A stretch of DNA of 64,000 nucleotides from Candidatus Kaiserbacteria bacterium. Its GTDB lineage: Bacteria > Patescibacteriota > Minisyncoccia > Phycocordibacterales > UBA2100. The translations under genes were made by a program, and so were the position numbers. Below are positions 5,511 to 47,893 of this stretch, in pieces. The notes under the pieces were generated by a model. The model was not told the origin of the DNA. It did no database searches and was given only the letters and a program-made list of their open reading frames with translations. Numbering within the stretch: the first letter of the stretch is position 1; the number at the start of each line of letters is the position of its first letter. The stretch is from the NCBI GenBank assembly GCA_016867375.1, contig VGJQ01000001.1, positions 21,394 through 85,393 of the forward strand, given 5' to 3'.

Positions 5511-5550
5511 CACTTGTTTATAGTTCGCGGCCGCGAACTATAAACAAGTG
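5511..5550. promoter_or_regulatory. 40-bp perfect palindrome cacttgtttatagttcgcggccgcgaactataaacaagtg (copy 1)
   Basis: Perfect dyad symmetry. Lies 36 bp downstream of the PaaX-like gene stop and 27 nt upstream of a TGgTATAAT extended -10 preceding the HIT gene start. A near-identical copy lies upstream of the PaaX-like gene. Confidence 0.6.
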
Positions 5551-5585: not shown

Positions 5586-6206
5586 TTAATCCAGTGGTAA
5601 GCCGAAGTGCTTACGGAGTGGTCGATCATATTCGACCGCATCGGCAATAAGGTATAGGAGGTTGGTACCGATGCACAGATTCGACTTGAGTAGAGCGATC
5701 ACTTCTTCGCAGTCATACGGATAGACCCACACACTATGTTGCAGTCGTAAGAAGCCAAGGTGGCGGACAAGGTATCGGATATGGTCACGCTGCGCTTTTC
5801 GTTTCTCCGGTATGTCAAAGATGACGATGCGCCAGCGACGATCCCACCGTTTTGGCTTGACGATAGATTTTATGCGACTCAGCTCCGCTTCCAAAAAATC
5901 CTTCCCCTTGTCAGTGATGCACATGCGCTTGCGGCCATTTTCATATCGGAACTCGACCAAACCCTTTCGTTTAAGACGCGAAGCCGTTTCATGGAGGCGC
6001 TGACGTGGGTCGGAAGGAAGGATCATATCGAGATGCTCGTTTTTCACGAGCGACAACACTTTTGGCGCCGCCATGGCCACTGTAAGAAGCCCTCCAGTGA
6101 CCAGCGTACCTAAAAGAACCTTCTCGAGTGCACCACGGCGAGCACGCTTCCTGACAACTCCCTCTAGGGTGAGAGTGGATACATTTTTACCGGGTAGTCT
6201 TTTCAT
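5586..6206 (-). CDS. PaaX-family-like transcriptional regulator (winged-HTH plus C-terminal Cas2-like/PaaX_C-type domain), with an N-terminal hydrophobic segment
   Basis: wHTH-like segment ASRLKRKGLVEFRYENGRKRMCITDKGKDFL. C-terminal WDRRWRIVIFDIPE...LGFLRLQHSVWVYP pattern as in PaaX C-terminal domains. The family assignment is by motif recall only. Confidence 0.5.
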   Translation of the reverse strand: MKRLPGKNVSTLTLEGVVRKRARRGALEKVLLGTLVTGGLLTVAMAAPKVLSLVKNEHLDMILPSDPRQRLHETASRLKRKGLVEFRYENGRKRMCITDKGKDFLEAELSRIKSIVKPKRWDRRWRIVIFDIPEKRKAQRDHIRYLVRHLGFLRLQHSVWVYPYDCEEVIALLKSNLCIGTNLLYLIADAVEYDRPLRKHFGLPLD

Positions 6207-6227
6207 AATGCAATGCGGAGATTATAG

Positions 6228-6267
6228 CACTTGTTTACAGTTCGCGGCCGCGAATTGTAAACAAGTG
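6228..6267. promoter_or_regulatory. 40-bp near-perfect palindrome cacttgtttacagttcgcggccgcgaattgtaaacaagtg (copy 2)
   Basis: One mismatch from perfect dyad symmetry. Its end, ...aacaaGTG, runs directly into cTATAAT (an extended -10), about 10 nt before the ATG of the PaaX-like gene on the minus strand. Confidence 0.6.
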
Positions 6268-6445
6268 TTAGCGCGTCTATAGCACCGTTTATTGACTCAG
6301 ACCAAAGTGTTCGGCGAGGCGATAGAGTTTTTGGGAGATCTTTTAAAAGACCTCCTTTACCATATGTGGATCTGAAAATACCATAGCACACTGTTTCAAT
6401 CTGTCCATTGAACTCCAATTAGGTCACGATGCTACAATCATTGCG

Positions 6446-8143: not shown

Positions 8144-8155
8144 AAACGCCGAGGT

Positions 8156-8320
8156 GCGGCAACCCGGGCTGCAGTGCACATTTCAACTGTTCGAGCACAG
8201 CATACATCATGTCATCACCGGACCCGAAGCCCAGCAATTCTCTGATTGAAGAGTGGAAAGCGGGCGAGTTTTGAAACGTGCACTGCAGCCCGGGTTGCCG
8301 CGCCCAAAGGACAATCCACA
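8156..8320 (+). repeat. Long-stem hairpin element, family 1, copy A (31-bp closing stem with 1 mismatch, about 100-nt loop)
   Basis: The arms gcggcaacccgggctgcagtgcacatttcaa and ttgaaacgtgcactgcagcccgggttgccgc pair. The loop carries ctgttcgagcacagca...cggacccgaagcccag...gcgggcgagt, which is shared with copy B. Confidence 0.75.
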
Positions 8321-9463: not shown

Positions 9464-9607
9464 TGCGGCAGTGGTGTGGGCGTGAGTGTTTCAACTGTTC
9501 GAGCACAGCACATACTATTTATTCCTCGGACCCGAAGTCCAGAAAACTCTGTTCGATACAAAAACGCGGGCGAGTTTTGAAACACTCACGCCCACACCAC
9601 TGCCGCA
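9464..9607 (+). repeat. Long-stem hairpin element, family 1, copy B (perfect 31-bp closing stem, about 82-nt loop)
   Basis: The arms tgcggcagtggtgtgggcgtgagtgtttcaa and its exact reverse complement pair. The stem sequence is completely different from copy A, but the loop core is conserved. It sits immediately 5' of the comEC start. Confidence 0.75.
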
Positions 9608-9635
9608 TATCACACTCGTCAGGGATGCTGCTCGG

Positions 9636-11153
9636 ATGTATAATCCCCGCCACATGGGGTCAACCATACTCTGGTCTACGGTAATCGGATTTCTCTCTGG
9701 CGTATTTGCGCGGTCTTTTATCCCACTCGGGTACGCTACGATGGGCACGCTTGTCCTCACGTCTTGGGCGCTTCTTGCATACGTCGCTCTCGGTAAAAGA
9801 TACGCGCGCATATGCATCTCATTGGCCGCTTTTTGTTTTCTGTGTGCGGCAGGGATATGGCGCATGGACATGGCGATCATCCCCGTCGACACGACCCTTC
9901 AGGCGCACACTGGTCAACGTGTCACTTTGTCGGGATACGTATTTGCCGAGCCCGACGCGCGCGAAGGCAGCACACGCGTATCCCTCAAGGTCCGCACACT
10001 GAGCATCGCGAGCACCACACTACCCGCACATGCCGGCATACTCGCCGTCCTGCCACCCCATACGCACGTCTCATACGGGGATATCGTCACGGTCTCGGGC
10101 ATCGTACGCATGCCCGAAGCATTTGATACCGGCATCGACCGGACATTCGACTATCCTGGATACCTCGCCACCAACGGTATTTCATACCTGGTATCTTCCG
10201 CACATCTCGAATCCATCGATGGCAACGAGGGCAACATCGCGCAGGCCTCCGTACTGCGCATAAAAAAGATATATCTCGACGGCCTCCATCAGACCTTGAG
10301 CGAGCCACAGGCGGGCCTCGCCGCAGGTATCACCGTCGGCGACAAACGATCCATCGGACCGGAGCGCTCGGAAGAATTCGTACGCGCCGGACTCGTCCAT
10401 ATGCTTGTCCTGTCCGGTTACAACATCACGATCATCCTCAACGCGGCAGCGTACTTCGTATCCTCCTTGCCGCGCGTCCTCCAATTGGGCACGAGCGGCA
10501 TCGTCGTCATGTTTTTTATCCTCCTTTCAGGCGGGGCATCGAGTGCGATACGCGCCGGACTCATGGCGCTCGTCGCTGCATTCGCCCGCCAGCACGGACG
10601 CATCTACCTGCCACTGCGCGCTATCGGGATCGTCGCAGCCGGTATGGTGCTCTGGAATCCATATATCCTTGCATTTGACCCAGGATTCCAGTTATCGGCA
10701 CTTGCCACCATTGGTCTCGTCGCCTTTACGCCGCCTATCGCCTCACACCTCCCTTGGATCACCGCCCGCCTTGGACTGCGCGAGATTGTTGCATCAACCC
10801 TCGCGACCCAAATCACCGTACTACCATTGCTCCTCTACCAAAACGGGCAACTTGCCGCCCTCTCACTTCCGGCAAACATTTTGGCACTCATTCCCGTACC
10901 TTTTGCGATGGCGGCATCGTTTGGCGCAGCGGTACTTGGAGCATTGTTTGGATCGACTGCGGCTATACTGGCATTTCCTGCATATGCACTCCTTTCGTAT
11001 ATACTCAGCATCGCTCATTTTTTCGCCTCGCTTCCGTTTGCGTCGGTATCTATCCGCGCATTCAGCGCCTGGTGGCTCACCATCGTATATATGGGACTCT
11101 TCATGTGGTGGCGATATTATGTCTCTGATGATAAAAACGAAAAAGCGGCCTGA
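9636..11153 (+). CDS. comEC: ComEC/Rec2-family DNA-uptake channel protein (N-terminal DUF4131 plus competence domain; no fused MBL domain)
   Basis: Polytopic. The conserved competence-domain region (HMLVLSGYNITII...GGASSAIRAGLMALVA) is present. The start was set at the first ATG downstream of hairpin element B. The ORF track starts at 9486, inside the hairpin. Confidence 0.8.
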   Translation: MYNPRHMGSTILWSTVIGFLSGVFARSFIPLGYATMGTLVLTSWALLAYVALGKRYARICISLAAFCFLCAAGIWRMDMAIIPVDTTLQAHTGQRVTLSGYVFAEPDAREGSTRVSLKVRTLSIASTTLPAHAGILAVLPPHTHVSYGDIVTVSGIVRMPEAFDTGIDRTFDYPGYLATNGISYLVSSAHLESIDGNEGNIAQASVLRIKKIYLDGLHQTLSEPQAGLAAGITVGDKRSIGPERSEEFVRAGLVHMLVLSGYNITIILNAAAYFVSSLPRVLQLGTSGIVVMFFILLSGGASSAIRAGLMALVAAFARQHGRIYLPLRAIGIVAAGMVLWNPYILAFDPGFQLSALATIGLVAFTPPIASHLPWITARLGLREIVASTLATQITVLPLLLYQNGQLAALSLPANILALIPVPFAMAASFGAAVLGALFGSTAAILAFPAYALLSYILSIAHFFASLPFASVSIRAFSAWWLTIVYMGLFMWWRYYVSDDKNEKAA

Positions 11154-16956: not shown

Positions 16957-17019
16957 TATGGCACATCGGCATAGTATTTTTGGAAACCAGGTTCCTTAAT
17001 GATAGTATGCCGGTACTTT

Positions 17020-17766
17020 ATGGCTTCACGCAAAGTACCGCTTGTACCCAATGAATATTTCCATGTCTACAATAGGGGTGTAGACGGTCGCTCTATTATT
17101 CAAGATAAAGAAGATCTTGGACGCCTGTTAAACAGTATGCGCGTTTTTAACCGCGTCGAACCGGTGGGAAGCCTTTATGCGTTTTCATTCCACGACCCTC
17201 AGTTAAGGAACCAGGTTCCTAAGTTGGAAGACAGTAAGCACCTTGTGTCTATCGTGTCTTTCAACATTCTCCCGAATCACATCCATTTCGTCCTGAAGCC
17301 ACTCGTTGAGAAAGGTGGGAGTGAGTATGTAAAACGTGTTATCGGAGGATTCACATTGTTCTTCAATGAAAAGTACGGGCGAACTGGGCCTCTTTTTCAA
17401 AGTCCGTTTAAAAGTACGCATATCCGCAGCACTCACCACTTGTTACACATGCAAACGTATGTCAATTTAAATGATTATATTCACGGACGAGGGCAATTTC
17501 CTGAATGGGTGGGTGCCAGCAGTTGGGGTATGTTCACCACTAAAACAATGAACGATATCTGCGACCCAATTGAGGTCGAAGCTATTCTTTCCCATTTTCC
17601 CAATCGTAGTGAATATCGAAAACGGGCCCTCGAAACTGCCGATGCAATATGGCAAGAGCGTATGGCAGACGAAATCGAGCAAACAACGCAGGGACGCGAT
17701 ATTGCGGACCAAGCCGCTCTGGAGAAGAATATTCTTCCCCAACTTAGGAACCAGGTTCCTAAGTGA
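17020..17766 (+). CDS. IS200-like / REP-associated tyrosine transposase (COG1943-type Y1 transposase)
   Basis: YFHVYNRG N-terminal motif, the HUH motif NHIHFVL, and a C-terminal Y-containing helix (YVNLNDYIHG). It is flanked by, and internally contains, the 21-nt palindrome ttaaggaaccaggttcctaag at about 16984, 17203 and 17743. Confidence 0.7.
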   Translation: MASRKVPLVPNEYFHVYNRGVDGRSIIQDKEDLGRLLNSMRVFNRVEPVGSLYAFSFHDPQLRNQVPKLEDSKHLVSIVSFNILPNHIHFVLKPLVEKGGSEYVKRVIGGFTLFFNEKYGRTGPLFQSPFKSTHIRSTHHLLHMQTYVNLNDYIHGRGQFPEWVGASSWGMFTTKTMNDICDPIEVEAILSHFPNRSEYRKRALETADAIWQERMADEIEQTTQGRDIADQAALEKNILPQLRNQVPK

Positions 17767-35489: not shown

Positions 35490-35507
35490 AGGATTAATTG
35501 TAGCGTG

Positions 35508-35548
35508 TAAGGGCTCGTCCGCAAATAATACACCTGTTATGCGCAGAC
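35508..35548 (+). repeat. REP-like TAAGGGCTCGTCC-hairpin element (copy 3, degenerate stem)
   Basis: taagggctcgtccgcaaataatacacctgttatgcgcagac. Confidence 0.55.
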
Positions 35549-35745
35549 TACGCGTTAGTCATCGGAAAAGTGAAAGGCAGCGCGATTCCTTTCAGGAATC
35601 GCGCCACCCCTACAACCCTACATGGCACAAGTCTGACTTGTGCCATTACCACTTTTAATCACAGACTCCGCTGTTGAGCCACTTGTGTGGCATGCCATGG
35701 AGCGCGTCGTGGATGAAAGTGCAGTCGTCGATGTAGTATGGCTAA

Positions 35746-35784
35746 AAAGGCGTCGCCTTTATCGGATAAAGGCGACGCCTTTTA
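35746..35784. terminator. Palindromic Rho-independent terminator downstream of rnpA
   Basis: aaaaggcgtcgcctttatcggataaaggcgacgcctttt, a 14-bp stem flanked by A and T runs. Confidence 0.7.
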
Positions 35785-35813
35785 GAAAAAATGAACTCGT
35801 GCAGGACGTGAGA

Positions 35814-36155: not shown

Positions 36156-36289
36156 TAGACGGTGATTTTTGCGCGCCCCTTGCGGCGGCGGCGGACAAGG
36201 ACTTTGGCGCCGGTCTTGGTGGCACTACGCACCAAAAAACCATGGGTCTTCGCTCGTTTACGCTTTTTGGGCTGGTATGTTCGCTTCAT
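36155..36289 (-). CDS. rpmH: 50S ribosomal protein L34
   Basis: Translates to [44 protein letters not shown] (44 aa). Absent from the ORF track because it is under 60 aa. Confidence 0.95.
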
Positions 36290-36345
36290 GCGGCCACTAT
36301 ACCGTATCTATACCCAAACTCAAGTTATTGGGGAGGGGTTATTGG

Positions 36346-36461
36346 GGAGGGGTGTGGCCGTATGGTGTTCTGGAACCATACCTACATTTTCACGCTTGCT
36401 GTTTGAGCTCCTGCTCTACATATGTGCCGGATATCCGTTCGCTGCGCGATGTTCCAGAACA
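36346..36461 (-). repeat. Long-stem hairpin element, family 2, copy C (21-bp stem ending ggaac/gttcc)
   Basis: The arms ggccgtatggtgttctggaac and gttccagaacaccatacggcc pair. The inner sequence is the reverse complement of the conserved core of copy D. Confidence 0.7.
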
Positions 36462-36554
36462 CCATACGGCCACATTCCTGACACCAACCTCCGGGCAACG
36501 TGCGTGGCCGTGTGTTTTGCCGTCTTCGCAGCCGCGACTAATCACACCCACCCT

Positions 36555-36685
36555 CAAGCGGTAGTGGCATACTGTTTTGGAACATCGCGCAGCGAACAAA
36601 CATCTGGCACACTAGTAGAGCAGGAGCTCGAAAAGAAAGGGTGGGACGAGGGTGTGGTTCCGAAACAGTATGCCACTACCGCTTG
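36555..36685 (+). repeat. Long-stem hairpin element, family 2, copy D (29-bp stem ending ggaac/gttcc)
   Basis: The arms caagcggtagtggcatactgttttggaac and gttccgaaacagtatgccactaccgcttg pair. The inner core atcgcgcagcgaacaaacatctggcacactagtagagcaggagctc is conserved with copy C (inverted). Confidence 0.7.
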
Positions 36686-36768
36686 TCCCCACCTTATCCA
36701 CACCTTGTGAACAACTCCGGAGAAAAGCGCCTTGCTTCTTAAAAAAGAATAGAAGCGTATAATGTGGA

Positions 36769-36862
36769 TAAGGGCTCGTCCACAAATAACGTACTCGTTA
36801 TTTGTGGCAGCCACTTATGGACCCGTTCATTTTATGTTGAACTTTTTATGAACGGGTCCTAA
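36769..36862 (+). repeat. REP-like element, full-length two-hairpin form (copy 4), inside the oriC region
   Basis: taagggctcgtccacaaataacgtactcgttatttgtggc ... ggacccgttcattttatgttgaactttttatgaacgggtcctaa. Confidence 0.65.
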
Positions 36863-36887
36863 CTAATACATATCACTCCAACTACCT

Positions 36888-38243
36888 ATGATGGCAAACC
36901 GAGAATTGTGGCAAAATGCACTCGTACAGATCGAGCTCGGCACGTCGGAGACCAGTTTTCGGACGTGGTTTCGCAATACGGATATCGCCAGTCGGGAAGG
37001 GGGAGTGGTACACGTCGCCGTACCATCAAAGATCGTAAAAGAGTGGCTCACCGACAAGCACAACAAGCTCATCCTCAAAACACTCCGTAGTTTAGATCCT
37101 TCGGTACGGACGGTAGAATACACGATTCACAAATCTATCGCCTCTCCTGTGAATGACCGTAAAACACCTCGCCAACCTTCCCCTGAAAATGCATCGCTCG
37201 ACCTCAGCAGCCTCTACATCGATAAGCGGGACAATTTGAACCCTCGCTATACCTTTGAAACCTTTGTGGTGGGACCATTCAATCAGCTCGCGCACGCGGC
37301 TGCAAAAGCAGTGCTTGAGCGCCCCGGACTCACCTATAATCCACTTTTTATCTATGGATCGACCGGACACGGAAAAACCCACCTTATTCAGGCAGTGGGG
37401 AATTACTTCAAGAAAACCCACGCCAATAAAAAGGTTTTGTATGTGACTTCCGAACGATTCGCCATCGACTACATAAACGCCGTGCGCTCCGGCCACGCCA
37501 ACACCTTCAAAGACCAGTATCGCCAATATGACGTCCTCATCATGGACGACATCCAATTCATCGCAAACACGGAAAAGACCCAAGAGGAGCTTTTTCACCT
37601 CTTCAACGCGCTTCGAGACAACAATAAACAGATCGTGTTTTCATCTGACAAACATCCATCACTCCTGAGCGGTCTCGAGGAGCGCCTCAAGAGCCGTTTT
37701 GCAGGGGGTATGATCGCCGAGATCCCTGAGCCGGACGTCGAGTCACGCACAGCGATCATCCGTGCCAAGATCGAACAGCACGGATTCTCGATCCCTGAGG
37801 ATATCATCAGCTACATCGCCGAAAACGTCCGCGGCAACATCCGCGAACTTGAAGGTGTCTTGAATATGATCGTCTGCCGATCGCAGTTGAAAGGCAAAAC
37901 CATCTCTCACGCCGACGTAAAAGCGCTTATTAAACACAATATGAAACCCTCGAAAGGCGTTTCGGTGGATGAGGTGGTGCGCCGCATCGCCCACTACTAT
38001 GACATCACCGAGAAAAACATCTATGAAAAGACGCGTAAAAAGGAGGTGGTGCGGCCGCGCCAAGTCATTATGTACATCCTTCGCGAGGAATTCAACATCT
38101 CATACCCTTCAATAGGGGAAAAGCTTGGAGGGCGAGATCACACCACCGTCATACACTCGTGTGAAAAAATCAAAGAGGAGGTGAAGGCAAACCCATCACT
38201 CGAAGCTGAGATCGAGCATATCCGCTCGCTTATCCAGGTATAA
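36888..38243 (+). CDS. dnaA: Chromosomal replication initiator protein DnaA
   Basis: AAA+ motifs (GSTGHGKTHL, IMDDIQF) and the C-terminal DNA-binding domain (RPRQVIMYI...). Confidence 0.95.
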   Translation: MMANRELWQNALVQIELGTSETSFRTWFRNTDIASREGGVVHVAVPSKIVKEWLTDKHNKLILKTLRSLDPSVRTVEYTIHKSIASPVNDRKTPRQPSPENASLDLSSLYIDKRDNLNPRYTFETFVVGPFNQLAHAAAKAVLERPGLTYNPLFIYGSTGHGKTHLIQAVGNYFKKTHANKKVLYVTSERFAIDYINAVRSGHANTFKDQYRQYDVLIMDDIQFIANTEKTQEELFHLFNALRDNNKQIVFSSDKHPSLLSGLEERLKSRFAGGMIAEIPEPDVESRTAIIRAKIEQHGFSIPEDIISYIAENVRGNIRELEGVLNMIVCRSQLKGKTISHADVKALIKHNMKPSKGVSVDEVVRRIAHYYDITEKNIYEKTRKKEVVRPRQVIMYILREEFNISYPSIGEKLGGRDHTTVIHSCEKIKEEVKANPSLEAEIEHIRSLIQV

Positions 38244-38479
38244 CCTGTGTATATGAATGGGTATAATAATATGAATAACAAGAGGAGTCTTTATAGGAAA
38301 TTCTGTGGGTATCTTCACTTTTTTTTCGACACGATCCTTTATCCCCGTAGGTATACATACACAGACACACTGTTTTCAACAGCGATCGATTGCTGTTACA
38401 GCTTTTCTTTCTGCCATATTTTGCCTTTTCCCCATTATCCACACCACTAGTAGTAATAGTAGTTTTTAATATAAAAGAT
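38244..38479. other. AT-rich dnaA-dnaN intergenic region with a DnaA box (candidate DNA-unwinding element / second oriC module)
   Basis: Strongly AT-rich relative to surroundings. TTATCCACA at 38435-38443 and degenerate TTTATCCCC nearby. Confidence 0.5.
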
Positions 38480-39583
38480 ATGAAGATCAGCGTAAGAAAA
38501 GATTCGATACTTCAAGCAGTTCTCATCTCAGAACGCATCACGGGAAAGAAGGAGTCGCTCCCTGTCCTTTCGTGCATCTTGATAGATACCCAAGATGAAG
38601 TAGTGGTCCGGGCAACCAACCTTGAGGCGGGCGTCGAGGTCCAGGTACCTGCCGATATCGAGGAGAAGGGGAGGGTGGCGGTGGTTGCGGGAATACTCGC
38701 ACAGACTATTCGTTCGATCAGTGGTGAGACGATAACACTCAAAACGAGTGATGACGGAAACCTCATTATCGAGGCAAAGGGTACCAAGACGATCATGAAA
38801 GCGATACCCCATGAGGAATTCCCGGTGCTGTCGCGTGAAAATGCAGATATTAAAGGCGTTGTGGTGGCGCGTGAGCGCTTTTTGCGCGGCATTCAGGCGG
38901 TCATTTATGCGACATCTCCTTCTATGATCCGTCCCGAGCTTGGGAGCGTGTATATTTCCATCAAACAGGGCGCCATTGTGTGCGCGGCGACCGATTCTTT
39001 CCGCTTGTCCGAAAAGACGATTCCAGGCGGATCAGTGGAAGATGTGGGGGATATTCTTGTGCCATTGAAACATGCACTCGAAATGGTTCATATTTTGGAG
39101 AAGATATCATCTGAGACTATTGCTATCAGACTCGAAGAGACAGATCTCGATATTCGTTCCGGCTCGGTGCGGTTTGTCTCGAGGATCGTCGATGCGACCT
39201 TCCCAAACTACAAAGAGATAATCCCAAAGAAATTTGCGACCGAGGCGACCCTGCTTAAGGGTGATTTTATGGAGATGCTTAGAAAGGCGCGGATTTTTTC
39301 TGGCAACGACCAGTATGTGGGGCTGCACGTCTATCCGTCACGAAAGATATTTTCTGCAACGGCACGCAGTAATGATGTGGGGGAGATGTCCGATACGATC
39401 GATGCGGCGATTTCCGGCGAGGATATCGATATCAATTTTCACATCGGCTATCTCGCCGACTGTCTCTCTTCGATAGAGTCCGACAGTATTACAATCGGAT
39501 TCGGCGGCATCGGGCGCCCAATGGTGATCCGTGGCGTCTCTGATGCGACATTTACCTACCTGGTAATGCCACTTAATCGCTAG
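38480..39583 (+). CDS. dnaN: DNA polymerase III beta sliding clamp
   Basis: N-terminus MKISVRKDSILQAVLISERITGKKESLPVLSCILI. Three-domain length (367 aa). Directly follows dnaA. Confidence 0.9.
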   Translation: MKISVRKDSILQAVLISERITGKKESLPVLSCILIDTQDEVVVRATNLEAGVEVQVPADIEEKGRVAVVAGILAQTIRSISGETITLKTSDDGNLIIEAKGTKTIMKAIPHEEFPVLSRENADIKGVVVARERFLRGIQAVIYATSPSMIRPELGSVYISIKQGAIVCAATDSFRLSEKTIPGGSVEDVGDILVPLKHALEMVHILEKISSETIAIRLEETDLDIRSGSVRFVSRIVDATFPNYKEIIPKKFATEATLLKGDFMEMLRKARIFSGNDQYVGLHVYPSRKIFSATARSNDVGEMSDTIDAAISGEDIDINFHIGYLADCLSSIESDSITIGFGGIGRPMVIRGVSDATFTYLVMPLNR

Positions 39584-47575: not shown

Positions 47576-47685
47576 ACAAAATCTATTGACTTTTATGTTG
47601 TATATGATATACTTCCATCAGCTGAAGTTTTTCAGGAGTTTTCGATTCATCAGCCACAAACAGAGGATCAATCCGGCTCGACGGA

Positions 47686-47817
47686 GGCGCGATTCTCTCA
47701 ACGATTGTATCATCATCCAGGACGGCGGCAGTCTGCCGCCACGCGGAATAGCACTTCCCCTATCCTGAGGTCATGACGCAGCTTTTCATTCAAAAGTGTC
47801 GTTGAGAGAATCGCGCC
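47686..47817 (+). repeat. Long-stem hairpin element (copy E; perfect 18-bp closing stem, about 96-nt interior with an internal ggcggcag-tctg-ccgcc hairpin)
   Basis: ggcgcgattctctcaacg ... cgttgagagaatcgcgcc. Confidence 0.6.
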
Positions 47818-47893
47818 CCTGTCTACCAATGATCACGATAGCATCTGCGGGCGCGCACACAAAGAGACTATCGTGGTGTGATGGAGGAAAGAC

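Follow-up and report, generated by a model that had tools for sequence, protein, structure and literature searches.

An inverted pair of long-stemmed hairpins beside the DnaA boxes of a Kaiserbacteria genome: divergent members of a slot-cassette family

What are two long, mutually inverted hairpins that stand between rpmH and dnaA of a Candidatus Kaiserbacteria genome, and are they passengers at this locus or part of its machinery? The stretch of DNA analysed here (the window, 64 kb of a 92-kb contig from a metagenome-assembled genome) has jag, yidC, rnpA and rpmH on the minus strand and dnaA and dnaN on the plus strand, on either side of a 598-nt spacer (36290-36887); its DnaA is 100% identical to a protein listed at NCBI under Candidatus Kaiserbacteria. 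The two hairpins, C and D, lie within this spacer (Table 1), and a first-pass annotation of the sequence had seen in them either selfish structured elements inserted repeatedly into the replication origin or components of the origin or its regulation; these are still the appropriate alternatives, and the comparisons below lend some support to each. As to their nature, C and D are two diverged copies of one element, its stem and interior duplicated together in inverted orientation, and they are divergent members of a family of cassettes found in one slot of the rpmH-dnaA spacer in Kaiserbacteria.

Hairpin D, the copy in the canonical slot and orientation, has the limits and the 29-bp stem originally assigned to it, with arms that are 97% complementary (the sole exception is one T.G pair). 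Hairpin C, the inverted extra copy, reads like D on the minus strand. Its initial delimitation (36346-36461, with a 21-bp stem) had cut off the 3' arm: the true end is at 36474, or at 36479 if the extended stem is counted, and the stem is 24-29 bp long, with a perfect 24-bp core (36353-36376 and 36451-36474) inside 29-nt arms that are 93% complementary. The tandem repeat of TTATTGGGGAGGGG and the DnaA boxes flank the pair as had been described, and the last bases of the tandem repeat lengthen the stem of C by two G.T pairs; the gap between the two hairpins is 75 nt rather than the approximately 90 bp first given.

Both stems terminate in GGAAC/GTTCC, in agreement with the first-pass annotation, which had nevertheless taken the stems to be unrelated and the interiors to share a core of about 50 nt followed by a variable tail of about 28 nt. 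Neither of the latter descriptions holds. The stems, GTGGC(CGT)ATGGTGTTCTGGAAC in one hairpin versus GTGGC, a three-nucleotide gap and ATACTGTTTTGGAAC in the other, are approximately 80% identical, and the changes between them are compensated in the opposite arm. The interiors, 73-74 nt in length, align end to end, tail included, with approximately 80% identity when C is taken on the minus strand, and include one block of 19 nt and one of 15 nt that are identical; compared as inverted sequences they are 83% complementary over 71 nt, which bears out the opposite orientation already reported. Since the stems are homologous with compensated changes and the interiors align in full, the unit that was duplicated and inverted is the whole hairpin. 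Within the window, both core blocks occur only at C and D.

The predicted folding energies of the two hairpins (-61 to -71 kcal/mol, z = -8.3 to -9.8) were not equalled by any of 200 shuffled sequences. This result bears on the explanation that C and D are chance palindromes or assembly artefacts devoid of biological meaning, a concern that arises from the metagenomic source, as fold-back chimeras can create inverted repeats. The shuffling argues against it, as do the recurrence of the same architecture, with compensatory changes, in more than 40 independent assemblies from different projects and the recovery of C and D by models built without any window sequence; the explanation is effectively refuted and keeps next to no probability.

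Searches for known relatives of the hairpins were negative within their respective scopes. Rfam 15 at its gathering threshold returned nothing but a tRNA in the window, only chance microRNA-like matches were obtained over 36200-36950 at E<=10, and six related loci gave no Rfam match at E<=1. A blastn comparison of the C and D interiors with 1.5 Mb of related loci found nothing beyond chance 14-15-mers, and the C/D core pattern (CGCAGCGAAC-N10-22-GTAGAGCAGGAG) had no match in a genome contig collection or in two viral contig scans, and five matches, all in unrelated coding DNA, in a metagenome contig collection. The defining motifs of hammerhead, twister, group II domain V, tRNA-like, signal recognition particle and 6S folds are absent, as judged by eye. 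Small open reading frames were also rejected, as neither a start codon nor a reading frame is conserved in the interiors and the frames called over the region are spurious, and so was an intrinsic terminator, as no T-run follows C or D and the sole terminator-like call is a 7-bp sub-stem inside C.

For comparison with related DNA, the sample consisted of the rpmH-dnaA region of close relatives and of 80 species-level Kaiserbacteria genomes (1.54 Mb including the window; individual related loci carry L-numbers), and was scanned for inverted repeats (arms of 18 nt or more, separated by 30-200 nt). The scan detected 131 long hairpins, and the rpmH-dnaA spacer, with 1.47% of the sequence, accounts for 46 of them. 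Of 86 loci, 41 have a hairpin in this spacer, and their spacers measure 240-600 nt, versus 135-230 nt in the loci without one, where the same position is A/T-rich. The slot hairpin begins just beyond the rpmH -35 box, and the 3' end of its stem lies 0-24 nt from the first DnaA box, which is itself about 100 nt from the dnaA ATG; the slot thus lies upstream of both the rpmH and the dnaA promoter, which are divergent. Hairpin D, in plus orientation and with the first DnaA box beginning 8 nt past its 3' arm, follows this rule, and hairpin C, inverted and 219 nt away, does not; both lie upstream of the rpmH promoter, which ends 6 nt before the rpmH ATG (36289), so that the rpmH mRNA is probably leaderless. 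An independent case of the same arrangement is found in L068, where two related slot hairpins (9611-9746 and 9760-9894) are inverted and 13 nt apart.

The slot hairpins comprise at least four interior families, and these differ between close relatives. Among the nearest relatives of the window (DnaA 86-92% identical), a third interior family occupies the slot in four (L002, L003, L005 and L097), while L093 and L095 carry a family in which the interior forms a three-way junction. The latter consists of the long stem, a 4-bp hairpin with the loop GACG and a 10-bp hairpin with the loop AGCA and a bulged A, both loops being invariant. A covariance model of this family (R1, from 7 sequences) retrieved 17 further or original members, nearly all of them in the slot. 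In the three-way junction, 98% of the alignment cells are paired, a figure that falls to 40-45% on sliding the partners by one to three columns. Both sides have changed in 24 of 26 pairs, and none of 500 shuffles reached the observed values.

The family to which C and D belong has a different layout, namely a variable stem of 20-35 bp, GAAC, (A/C)T-CGCGCAGC, about 25 nt, ..A.AGCAG.., a variable 3' half and GTTC, with 38 nt in total from GAAC-(A/C)T-CGCGCAGC to a central block AGTGGTGAT, and then GTTC. Every member measures 81-83 nt from GAAC to GTTC (82 nt in C and 81 nt in D), and C and D both have the 5' block (A/C)TCGCGCAGC and the closing GAAC...GTTC pairs. A second covariance model (R2), derived from 8 other species with the window left out and applied to a search space of 1.55 Mb, found C at 36365-36462 on the minus strand (41.5 bits, E 6e-7) and D at 36572-36668 on the plus strand (37.5 bits, E 6e-6), each over model positions 1-98 of 98; other members score 50-93 bits. 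The model also finds slot members in L020 and L029 and one copy in L058, 8 kb from dnaA, and 12 of its 13 matches are in the slot. Because a model built without the window recovers both hairpins at full length, they belong to this family; they are divergent members because the 5' half is shared as far as ..TA.AGCAG but the block AGTGGTGAT that should follow is missing, AGGAGCTC(A/G) standing in its place. The covariation check proposed at first pass is also borne out in the family stem, where 10 of 12 pairs have changed on both sides and none of 500 shuffles reached the score. R1 and R2 thus define families absent from Rfam, and no description of elements of this kind in Patescibacteria or in rpmH-dnaA spacers was found in the searchable literature.

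A wider relationship had been suggested between C and D and the 'family 1' hairpins of the window (8153-8304 and 9464-9607), and is not supported. Neither R1 nor R2 matches these at E<=1, and what they have in common with C and D is limited to the general architecture and a GTTCG pentamer. The family 1 hairpins have 31-34 bp arms and 82-84 nt interiors; one follows recJ and the other an RNase HI gene, the hairpin starting 10-12 nt past the stop codon. Conservation between the two covers three blocks of the interior and, in the stem, the outermost 9 bp and the innermost 6 bp; the part of the stem in between shows no sequence relationship but pairs perfectly.

The strongest indication of constraint comes from the three-way-junction family. 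Between genomes with DnaA proteins that are 97-99% identical, 4-fold degenerate sites are only 45-63% identical, that is, saturated, and in the same genome pairs the rpmH coding sequence is 78-83% identical, the spacer flanks 39-87% and the stems 54-68% (about random), compared with 96-100% for the interior. Against saturated 4-fold sites, such identity indicates that the interior is held by selection, with the stems drifting neutrally but remaining paired. The interior identity falls along with that of the DnaA protein. Hypermutation of the stems was considered and rejected, as the 4-fold sites are already saturated and neutral drift with retained pairing suffices. Such a pattern is that of a functional element which is passed on vertically and depends on its structure, and the evolutionary signature is an unusual one, the interior being kept more strongly than the adjacent ribosomal-protein gene and the stem being free in sequence but strictly paired.

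These observations suggest what the cassettes may do. The C/D family normally fills a single slot, bounded on one side by the rpmH promoter and on the other by the DnaA-box cluster that precedes the dnaA promoter, and reads in the direction of dnaA; D is the slot copy and C a supernumerary inverted duplicate. The cassettes would be inherited mostly vertically, under constraint on sequence in the interior blocks and on pairing in the stem, and would occasionally be lost, or replaced by recombination with the DNA of related strains. The active form would be a folded single strand of the dnaA-sense strand, either as a small non-coding RNA or as an RNA acting in cis, with the long perfect helix as a module for processing or stability (a substrate of the RNase III type); an RNA of one of these kinds appears somewhat more likely than a single-stranded DNA hairpin. 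The fixed position and orientation of the slot next to the DnaA boxes, the conservation of the interior and the covariation all count in favour of a function. The strand itself is suggested by the mismatches in the three-way-junction family, which on the dnaA-sense strand number 10 G.U/U.G versus 2 A.C/C.A, albeit in a small sample and in an alignment fitted to the model; an excess on one strand points to a single folding strand, as a cruciform would constrain both equally. Single-strand transposition of the IS200/IS605 type follows a lagging-template rule, and the favoured, better-folding strand is the leading-strand template of the left replichore, which does not fit that rule and is most simply read as RNA. 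A functional folded single strand, RNA more likely than DNA, constrained by its structure and exchanged by recombination, is the reading tentatively favoured here, with a probability that we would place a little below even.

Several observations weigh against a functional RNA, beyond the small sample just mentioned. The outer stems show no wobble excess, with 15 G.T and 15 A.C mismatches. No sigma-70-like promoter directed into the hairpins was found on the dnaA-sense strand, no U-tract terminator was found after them, and the slot has no co-oriented gene upstream, so that nothing found at the locus accounts for the synthesis of an RNA. Roughly half of the related species lack a slot hairpin, and any function must therefore be dispensable or replaceable. 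Also significant is the weaker conservation of the C/D family itself, in which the interiors are 53-70% identical between species with only short blocks kept, and for which RNAalifold recovers the long stem only and no shared interior helix (a small TCGC-loop-GCGA hairpin was seen in the interior by eye). As a consequence, the argument from constraint rests mainly on the three-way-junction sister family.

The turnover of the cassettes brings in the most serious rival. On the DnaA tree, occupancy of the slot is patchy: the DnaA proteins of L092 and L019 are 99% identical, yet only L092 has a hairpin, L022 and L021 carry different families at 98% identity, and L095 and L002 carry different families between near-identical flanks. 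Stumps of earlier occupants, comprising the 5' arm and the first 8-13 nt of the interior and ending just after a shared CGCAG-type motif, are present in four loci (the window, L023, L033 and L079). That of the window, located between C and D, is what is left of an older cassette from another family, and its positions 36511-36536 are identical, 26 of 26, to the 5' half of the slot hairpin of L022, despite the fact that the two DnaA proteins are only about 83-84% identical, which suggests that a lineage can take up cassettes, together with their stems, from others. Between stump and intact hairpin the rpmH -35 region is present a second time in L023, L033 and the window, in the same arrangement, and no such copy is evident in L079. 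Replacement of one cassette by another may have proceeded through recombination with incoming related DNA. The alternative of insertion into pre-existing palindromes was rejected, as the hairpin-less species show no empty long palindrome in the slot.

Two further observations concern the same loci. In L006 (2597-2747), a 52-nt hairpin module inside the slot-hairpin interior is present that is missing from L005 (5989-6087) and L007 (897-995), which encode an identical DnaA protein; the module recurs in L003 with compensatory changes. The difference is a within-species insertion or deletion of a nested structural module. Immediately beyond the jag-yidC-rnpA-rpmH genes in L002 (1-7906), and in equivalent positions in L003 and L005, the closest relatives of the window, lies a set of conjugation or type IV secretion-like genes (PrgI, TraC-like, VirB4/TraG-type ATPase and type IV secretion system pilin).

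The presence/absence differences and family swaps among relatives with 97-99% identical DnaA, together with the persistence of stumps, are what would be expected if the cassettes were selfish, non-autonomous hairpin repeats (REPIN-, PATE- or MITE-like, the last being miniature inverted-repeat transposable elements) that are moved as single-stranded DNA by a Y1/HUH enzyme of the host, for which the spacer between divergent promoters is a permissive landing site and from which the host derives no benefit. Occasional copies do occur at other intergenic sites (L058, L059, L066, L090, L038 and L068), and most of these closely follow the 3' end of a gene read in the same direction, whose transcription could run on into them; the inverted pair of L068 is of independent origin; and other inserted repeats lie nearby in the genome. 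The window also encodes an IS200-like Y1 (RAYT-like) protein, its gene flanked by palindromes and also containing one, with homologues in syntenic positions in L020, L042, L047 and L087, each of which has different flanking palindromes. The match of the window protein to Pfam Y1_Tnp (E 0.009, 16.6 bits) is below the curated cut-off of 23, which the homologues in L047 (25.7 bits) and L020 (34 bits) pass. Furthermore, copies to the right of the origin are all on the minus strand (4 of 4) and those to the left mostly on the plus strand. A replication-linked strand bias is known for single-strand transposition, and the bias observed here fits either transcription or replication as its cause.

Other features are difficult to reconcile with a selfish repeat. 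Copies are very few and cluster strongly in a single slot, and the many copies away from the origin by which the first-pass annotation would have recognised a simple MITE are not seen: the 64 kb covered of the 92-kb contig hold two copies, both in one spacer, and neither the related loci (1.5 Mb) nor the pattern scans of genome and metagenome contigs yielded a further C/D core. The ends of the element are not kept between species, unlike those of REP sequences or the terminal repeats of MITEs, and no direct repeats indicative of target-site duplication were seen, on reading the sequences, around C, D or the hairpins of relatives. An inert insertion should not retain a 96-100% identical interior while its flanks and stems decay, as is the case in the sister family, the better-folding strand is the opposite of that expected for IS200/IS605, and the palindromes around the Y1 gene have no other copies in the window. 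We regard a selfish repeat as a serious rival that is possible rather than probable.

The remaining explanation operates at the level of DNA and depends on where the origin lies. The cumulative GC skew, which had been proposed as a check, has its minimum at 36-38 kb of the window and places the origin region here, as do the DnaA boxes, and to this extent the description of the hairpins as embedded in oriC stands. The core unwinding module, by contrast, is probably the arrangement of DnaA box, trios and AT-rich sequence located directly before the dnaN ATG, in the dnaA-dnaN spacer, as it matches the basal unwinding system (incC) of Bacillus subtilis, a DnaA box followed by DnaA-trios and AT-rich DNA (PMC6669920). 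The same order of box, CTA(A/G)TAGTAGTAATAGTA trios and AT-rich DNA is found in the dnaA-dnaN spacer of nearly all of 88 loci (e.g. L002-L092) and is absent from 36290-36887. The C/D cassettes are therefore not the unwinding element of the origin, and the rpmH-dnaA spacer, with its DnaA-box cluster and dnaA promoter, is at most the second half of a bipartite origin. A probable location of the Kaiserbacteria unwinding module in the dnaA-dnaN spacer is a result in its own right.

A cassette might nevertheless serve such a bipartite origin as a hairpin or cruciform, or might absorb or insulate negative supercoiling between the divergent rpmH and dnaA promoters. The fixed distance and orientation relative to the DnaA boxes, the switch of GC skew at this site, a position upstream of both promoters where transcription is not required, the near-perfect stems of 20-35 bp with an AT-rich inner part, and the A/T-rich composition of the same position in hairpin-less species are all compatible with a component of this kind. 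The location of the box, trio and AT-rich module in the other spacer speaks against it, however, as do the absence of any hairpin from half of the species, the occurrence of the same families far from the origin, and the asymmetry of G.T over A.C (10 versus 2) on one strand, given that a cruciform would constrain both. Long GC-rich interiors are kinetically unfavourable for cruciform extrusion, and the interiors here are 55-90 nt long and often GC-rich. On this balance a DNA-level component of the origin or of dnaA control is unlikely.

If the favoured reading of a functional folded strand is carried further, the cassettes would represent an undescribed class of conserved, interchangeable elements beside the dnaA DnaA boxes of Kaiserbacteria, and maybe of other Parcubacteria, acting as RNA or single-stranded DNA regulators of dnaA expression or of initiation, with C and D as a lineage-specific duplicated member; so broad a proposal must be considered doubtful, though it is by no means far-fetched. 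As far as known, a slot beside DnaA boxes that is filled by interchangeable, strongly covarying cassettes is a new pattern, and it occurs in the Candidate Phyla Radiation, in which replication control is essentially unstudied. A functional cassette would add a control element of a new kind, defined by its structure and placed beside the DnaA boxes of the initiator gene. A selfish one would be a type of repeat for which the spacer between two essential divergent promoters is either the target or the sole place of survival, and which differs from REPINs and MITEs in which of its parts is conserved.

Table 1. Positions of the hairpins and of associated features in the window.
Feature	Position	Strand	Details
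IS200-like Y1 (RAYT-like) gene	17020-17766	+	palindromes TTAGGAACCAGGTTCCTAA at 16982-16999, 17203-17222 and 17745-17765, flanking and inside the gene
Third repeat family	16916, 20028, 35508, 36769, 43127, 43224 (-), 56586		seven copies
rpmH promoter	36296-36323	-	TTGAGT, 16-nt spacer, TATAGT; invariant columns in the alignment of relatives
Tandem repeat	36325-36352	+	two copies of TTATTGGGGAGGGG, between rpmH -35 box and hairpin C
Hairpin C	36348-36479	-	arms 36348-36376 and 36451-36479, interior 36377-36450; inverted extra copy
Stump of earlier cassette	36504-36536	+	5' arm and first 13 nt of interior, CTTCGCAGCCGCG
Second copy of rpmH -35 region sequence	36537-36558		ACTAATCACACCCACCCTCAAG; directly left of D, overlapping its first 4 nt
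Hairpin D	36555-36685	+	arms 36555-36583 and 36657-36685, interior 36584-36656; copy in canonical slot and orientation
DnaA-box cluster	36686-36715	+	TCCCCAC-CTTATCCACA-CCTTGTGAACA; perfect box 36694-36702; kept in all related loci
dnaA promoter -10 box	36758-36763	+	TATAAT; overlapped by inverted perfect DnaA box 36763-36771 (-)
Core unwinding module (probable)	38435-38480	+	DnaA box TTATCCACA, CCAC, TAG/TAA trios TAGTAGTAATAGTAG, AT-rich TTTTTAATATAAAAGAT; directly before dnaN ATG

The window contains several other repeats. The third repeat family consists of TAAGGGCTCGTCCACAAATAA followed by a 12-bp hairpin (cgtacNcg loop region), and has seven copies against a chance expectation of none. 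The copy situated in the dnaA 5' leader, immediately behind the -10 box, adds about 90 nt relative to related genomes, and another adjoins the Y1 transposase-like gene. In a Logan contig from the same organism (L001, 2875 nt), which was assembled independently, the assembly breaks 110 nt upstream of dnaA at the repeat of window position 36769, and the repeats of the rpmH-dnaA spacer evidently fragment assemblies. A further copy lies in the yidC-rnpA gap (35490-35813), which measures about 325 nt versus about 37 nt in related genomes and also contains several small hairpins and a perfect palindrome with 19-bp arms (35745-35783); the extra DNA may be an inserted small-RNA gene or mobile DNA within the operon.

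Between a pilB-like gene and ruvB, a long-stem hairpin at 47678-47825 has an interior of 84-99 nt (CC.AGGACG..GCGG..CCGC..CTATCCT.AGGTC..GCAACTTT) and recurs at a syntenic site in L002 (19551-19698), L005 (13885-14032) and about 18 other loci, 7.5 to 10.8 kb to the plus side of dnaA. It has no Rfam match and resembles a non-coding RNA gene or leader that has escaped annotation. A PaaX-like regulator gene (5586-6206, minus strand) stands between two perfect palindromes of 40-46 bp that are nearly identical to each other (CACTTGTTTAnAGTTCGCGG|CCGCGAACTnTAAACAAGTG; 5511-5550 and 6225-6270) and may be operators or another type of repeat.

Compared with known systems, the cassettes show partial likenesses to each of several; in the case of REPINs, MITEs, attC sites and RNase III stems the likeness is one of architecture, and a defining feature of each is lacking. 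The basal origin-unwinding module shares their chromosomal neighbourhood and their adjacency to DnaA boxes, but it lies 1.75 kb away, and the cassettes contain no array of trios and are missing from half of the species. Long stems processed by RNase III, such as rRNA precursor stems and the intervening sequences of 23S rRNA, likewise have helices of at least 20 bp that drift in sequence yet stay paired and that enclose a functional or excised interior; they differ in usually tolerating G.U pairs and bulges to a greater degree, and transcription, for which no promoter was found in the case of the cassettes, would have to be assumed.

The REPIN and REP sequences associated with RAYT proteins (Y1 HUH enzymes) are also intergenic elements of approximately 100-130 nt that form one long hairpin with compensatory changes in the stem, that often lie at gene 3' ends and in clusters of alternating orientation, and whose host has a single-copy IS200-like Y1 gene flanked by palindromes (PMC3116915). 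However, in REPINs the REP ends are conserved and the spacer is free, the reverse of the cassettes, in which the ends are free and the interior blocks conserved, and REPINs number tens to hundreds per genome, compared with two cassettes in 64 kb and a family nearly confined to one slot. In addition, the palindromes at the Y1 gene of the window are not cassette sequence: GGAACCAGGTTCC occurs only there (16983, 17207 and 17747) and shares only GGAAC/GTTCC with C and D. MITEs such as the Correia elements of Neisseria are likewise small and non-coding, with inverted repeats of about 25 bp at their ends, occurrence in promoter-proximal spacers, and interiors that come in a longer and a shorter form (cf. 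the 52-nt module that distinguishes L006 from L005). The cassettes differ from these in having neither terminal inverted repeats conserved by family across species (the outer stems are unalignable between species, and C and D share inner-stem similarity only) nor target-site duplications nor high-copy dispersal, and in being constrained in the interior rather than at the ends.

The attC sites of integrons, finally, are single-strand hairpin sites defined by structure, with a stem that is mostly free in sequence and with GTT/AAC-type motifs. No integrase or cassette array is found among the genes neighbouring C and D. In attC, furthermore, the R''/R' boxes (RYYYAAC...GTTRRRY) are located at the outer base of the stem, which has extrahelical bases, and the loop is unconserved, whereas in the cassettes the GAAC/GTTC motifs are at the inner end, the stems are without bulges, and the loop is the conserved part.

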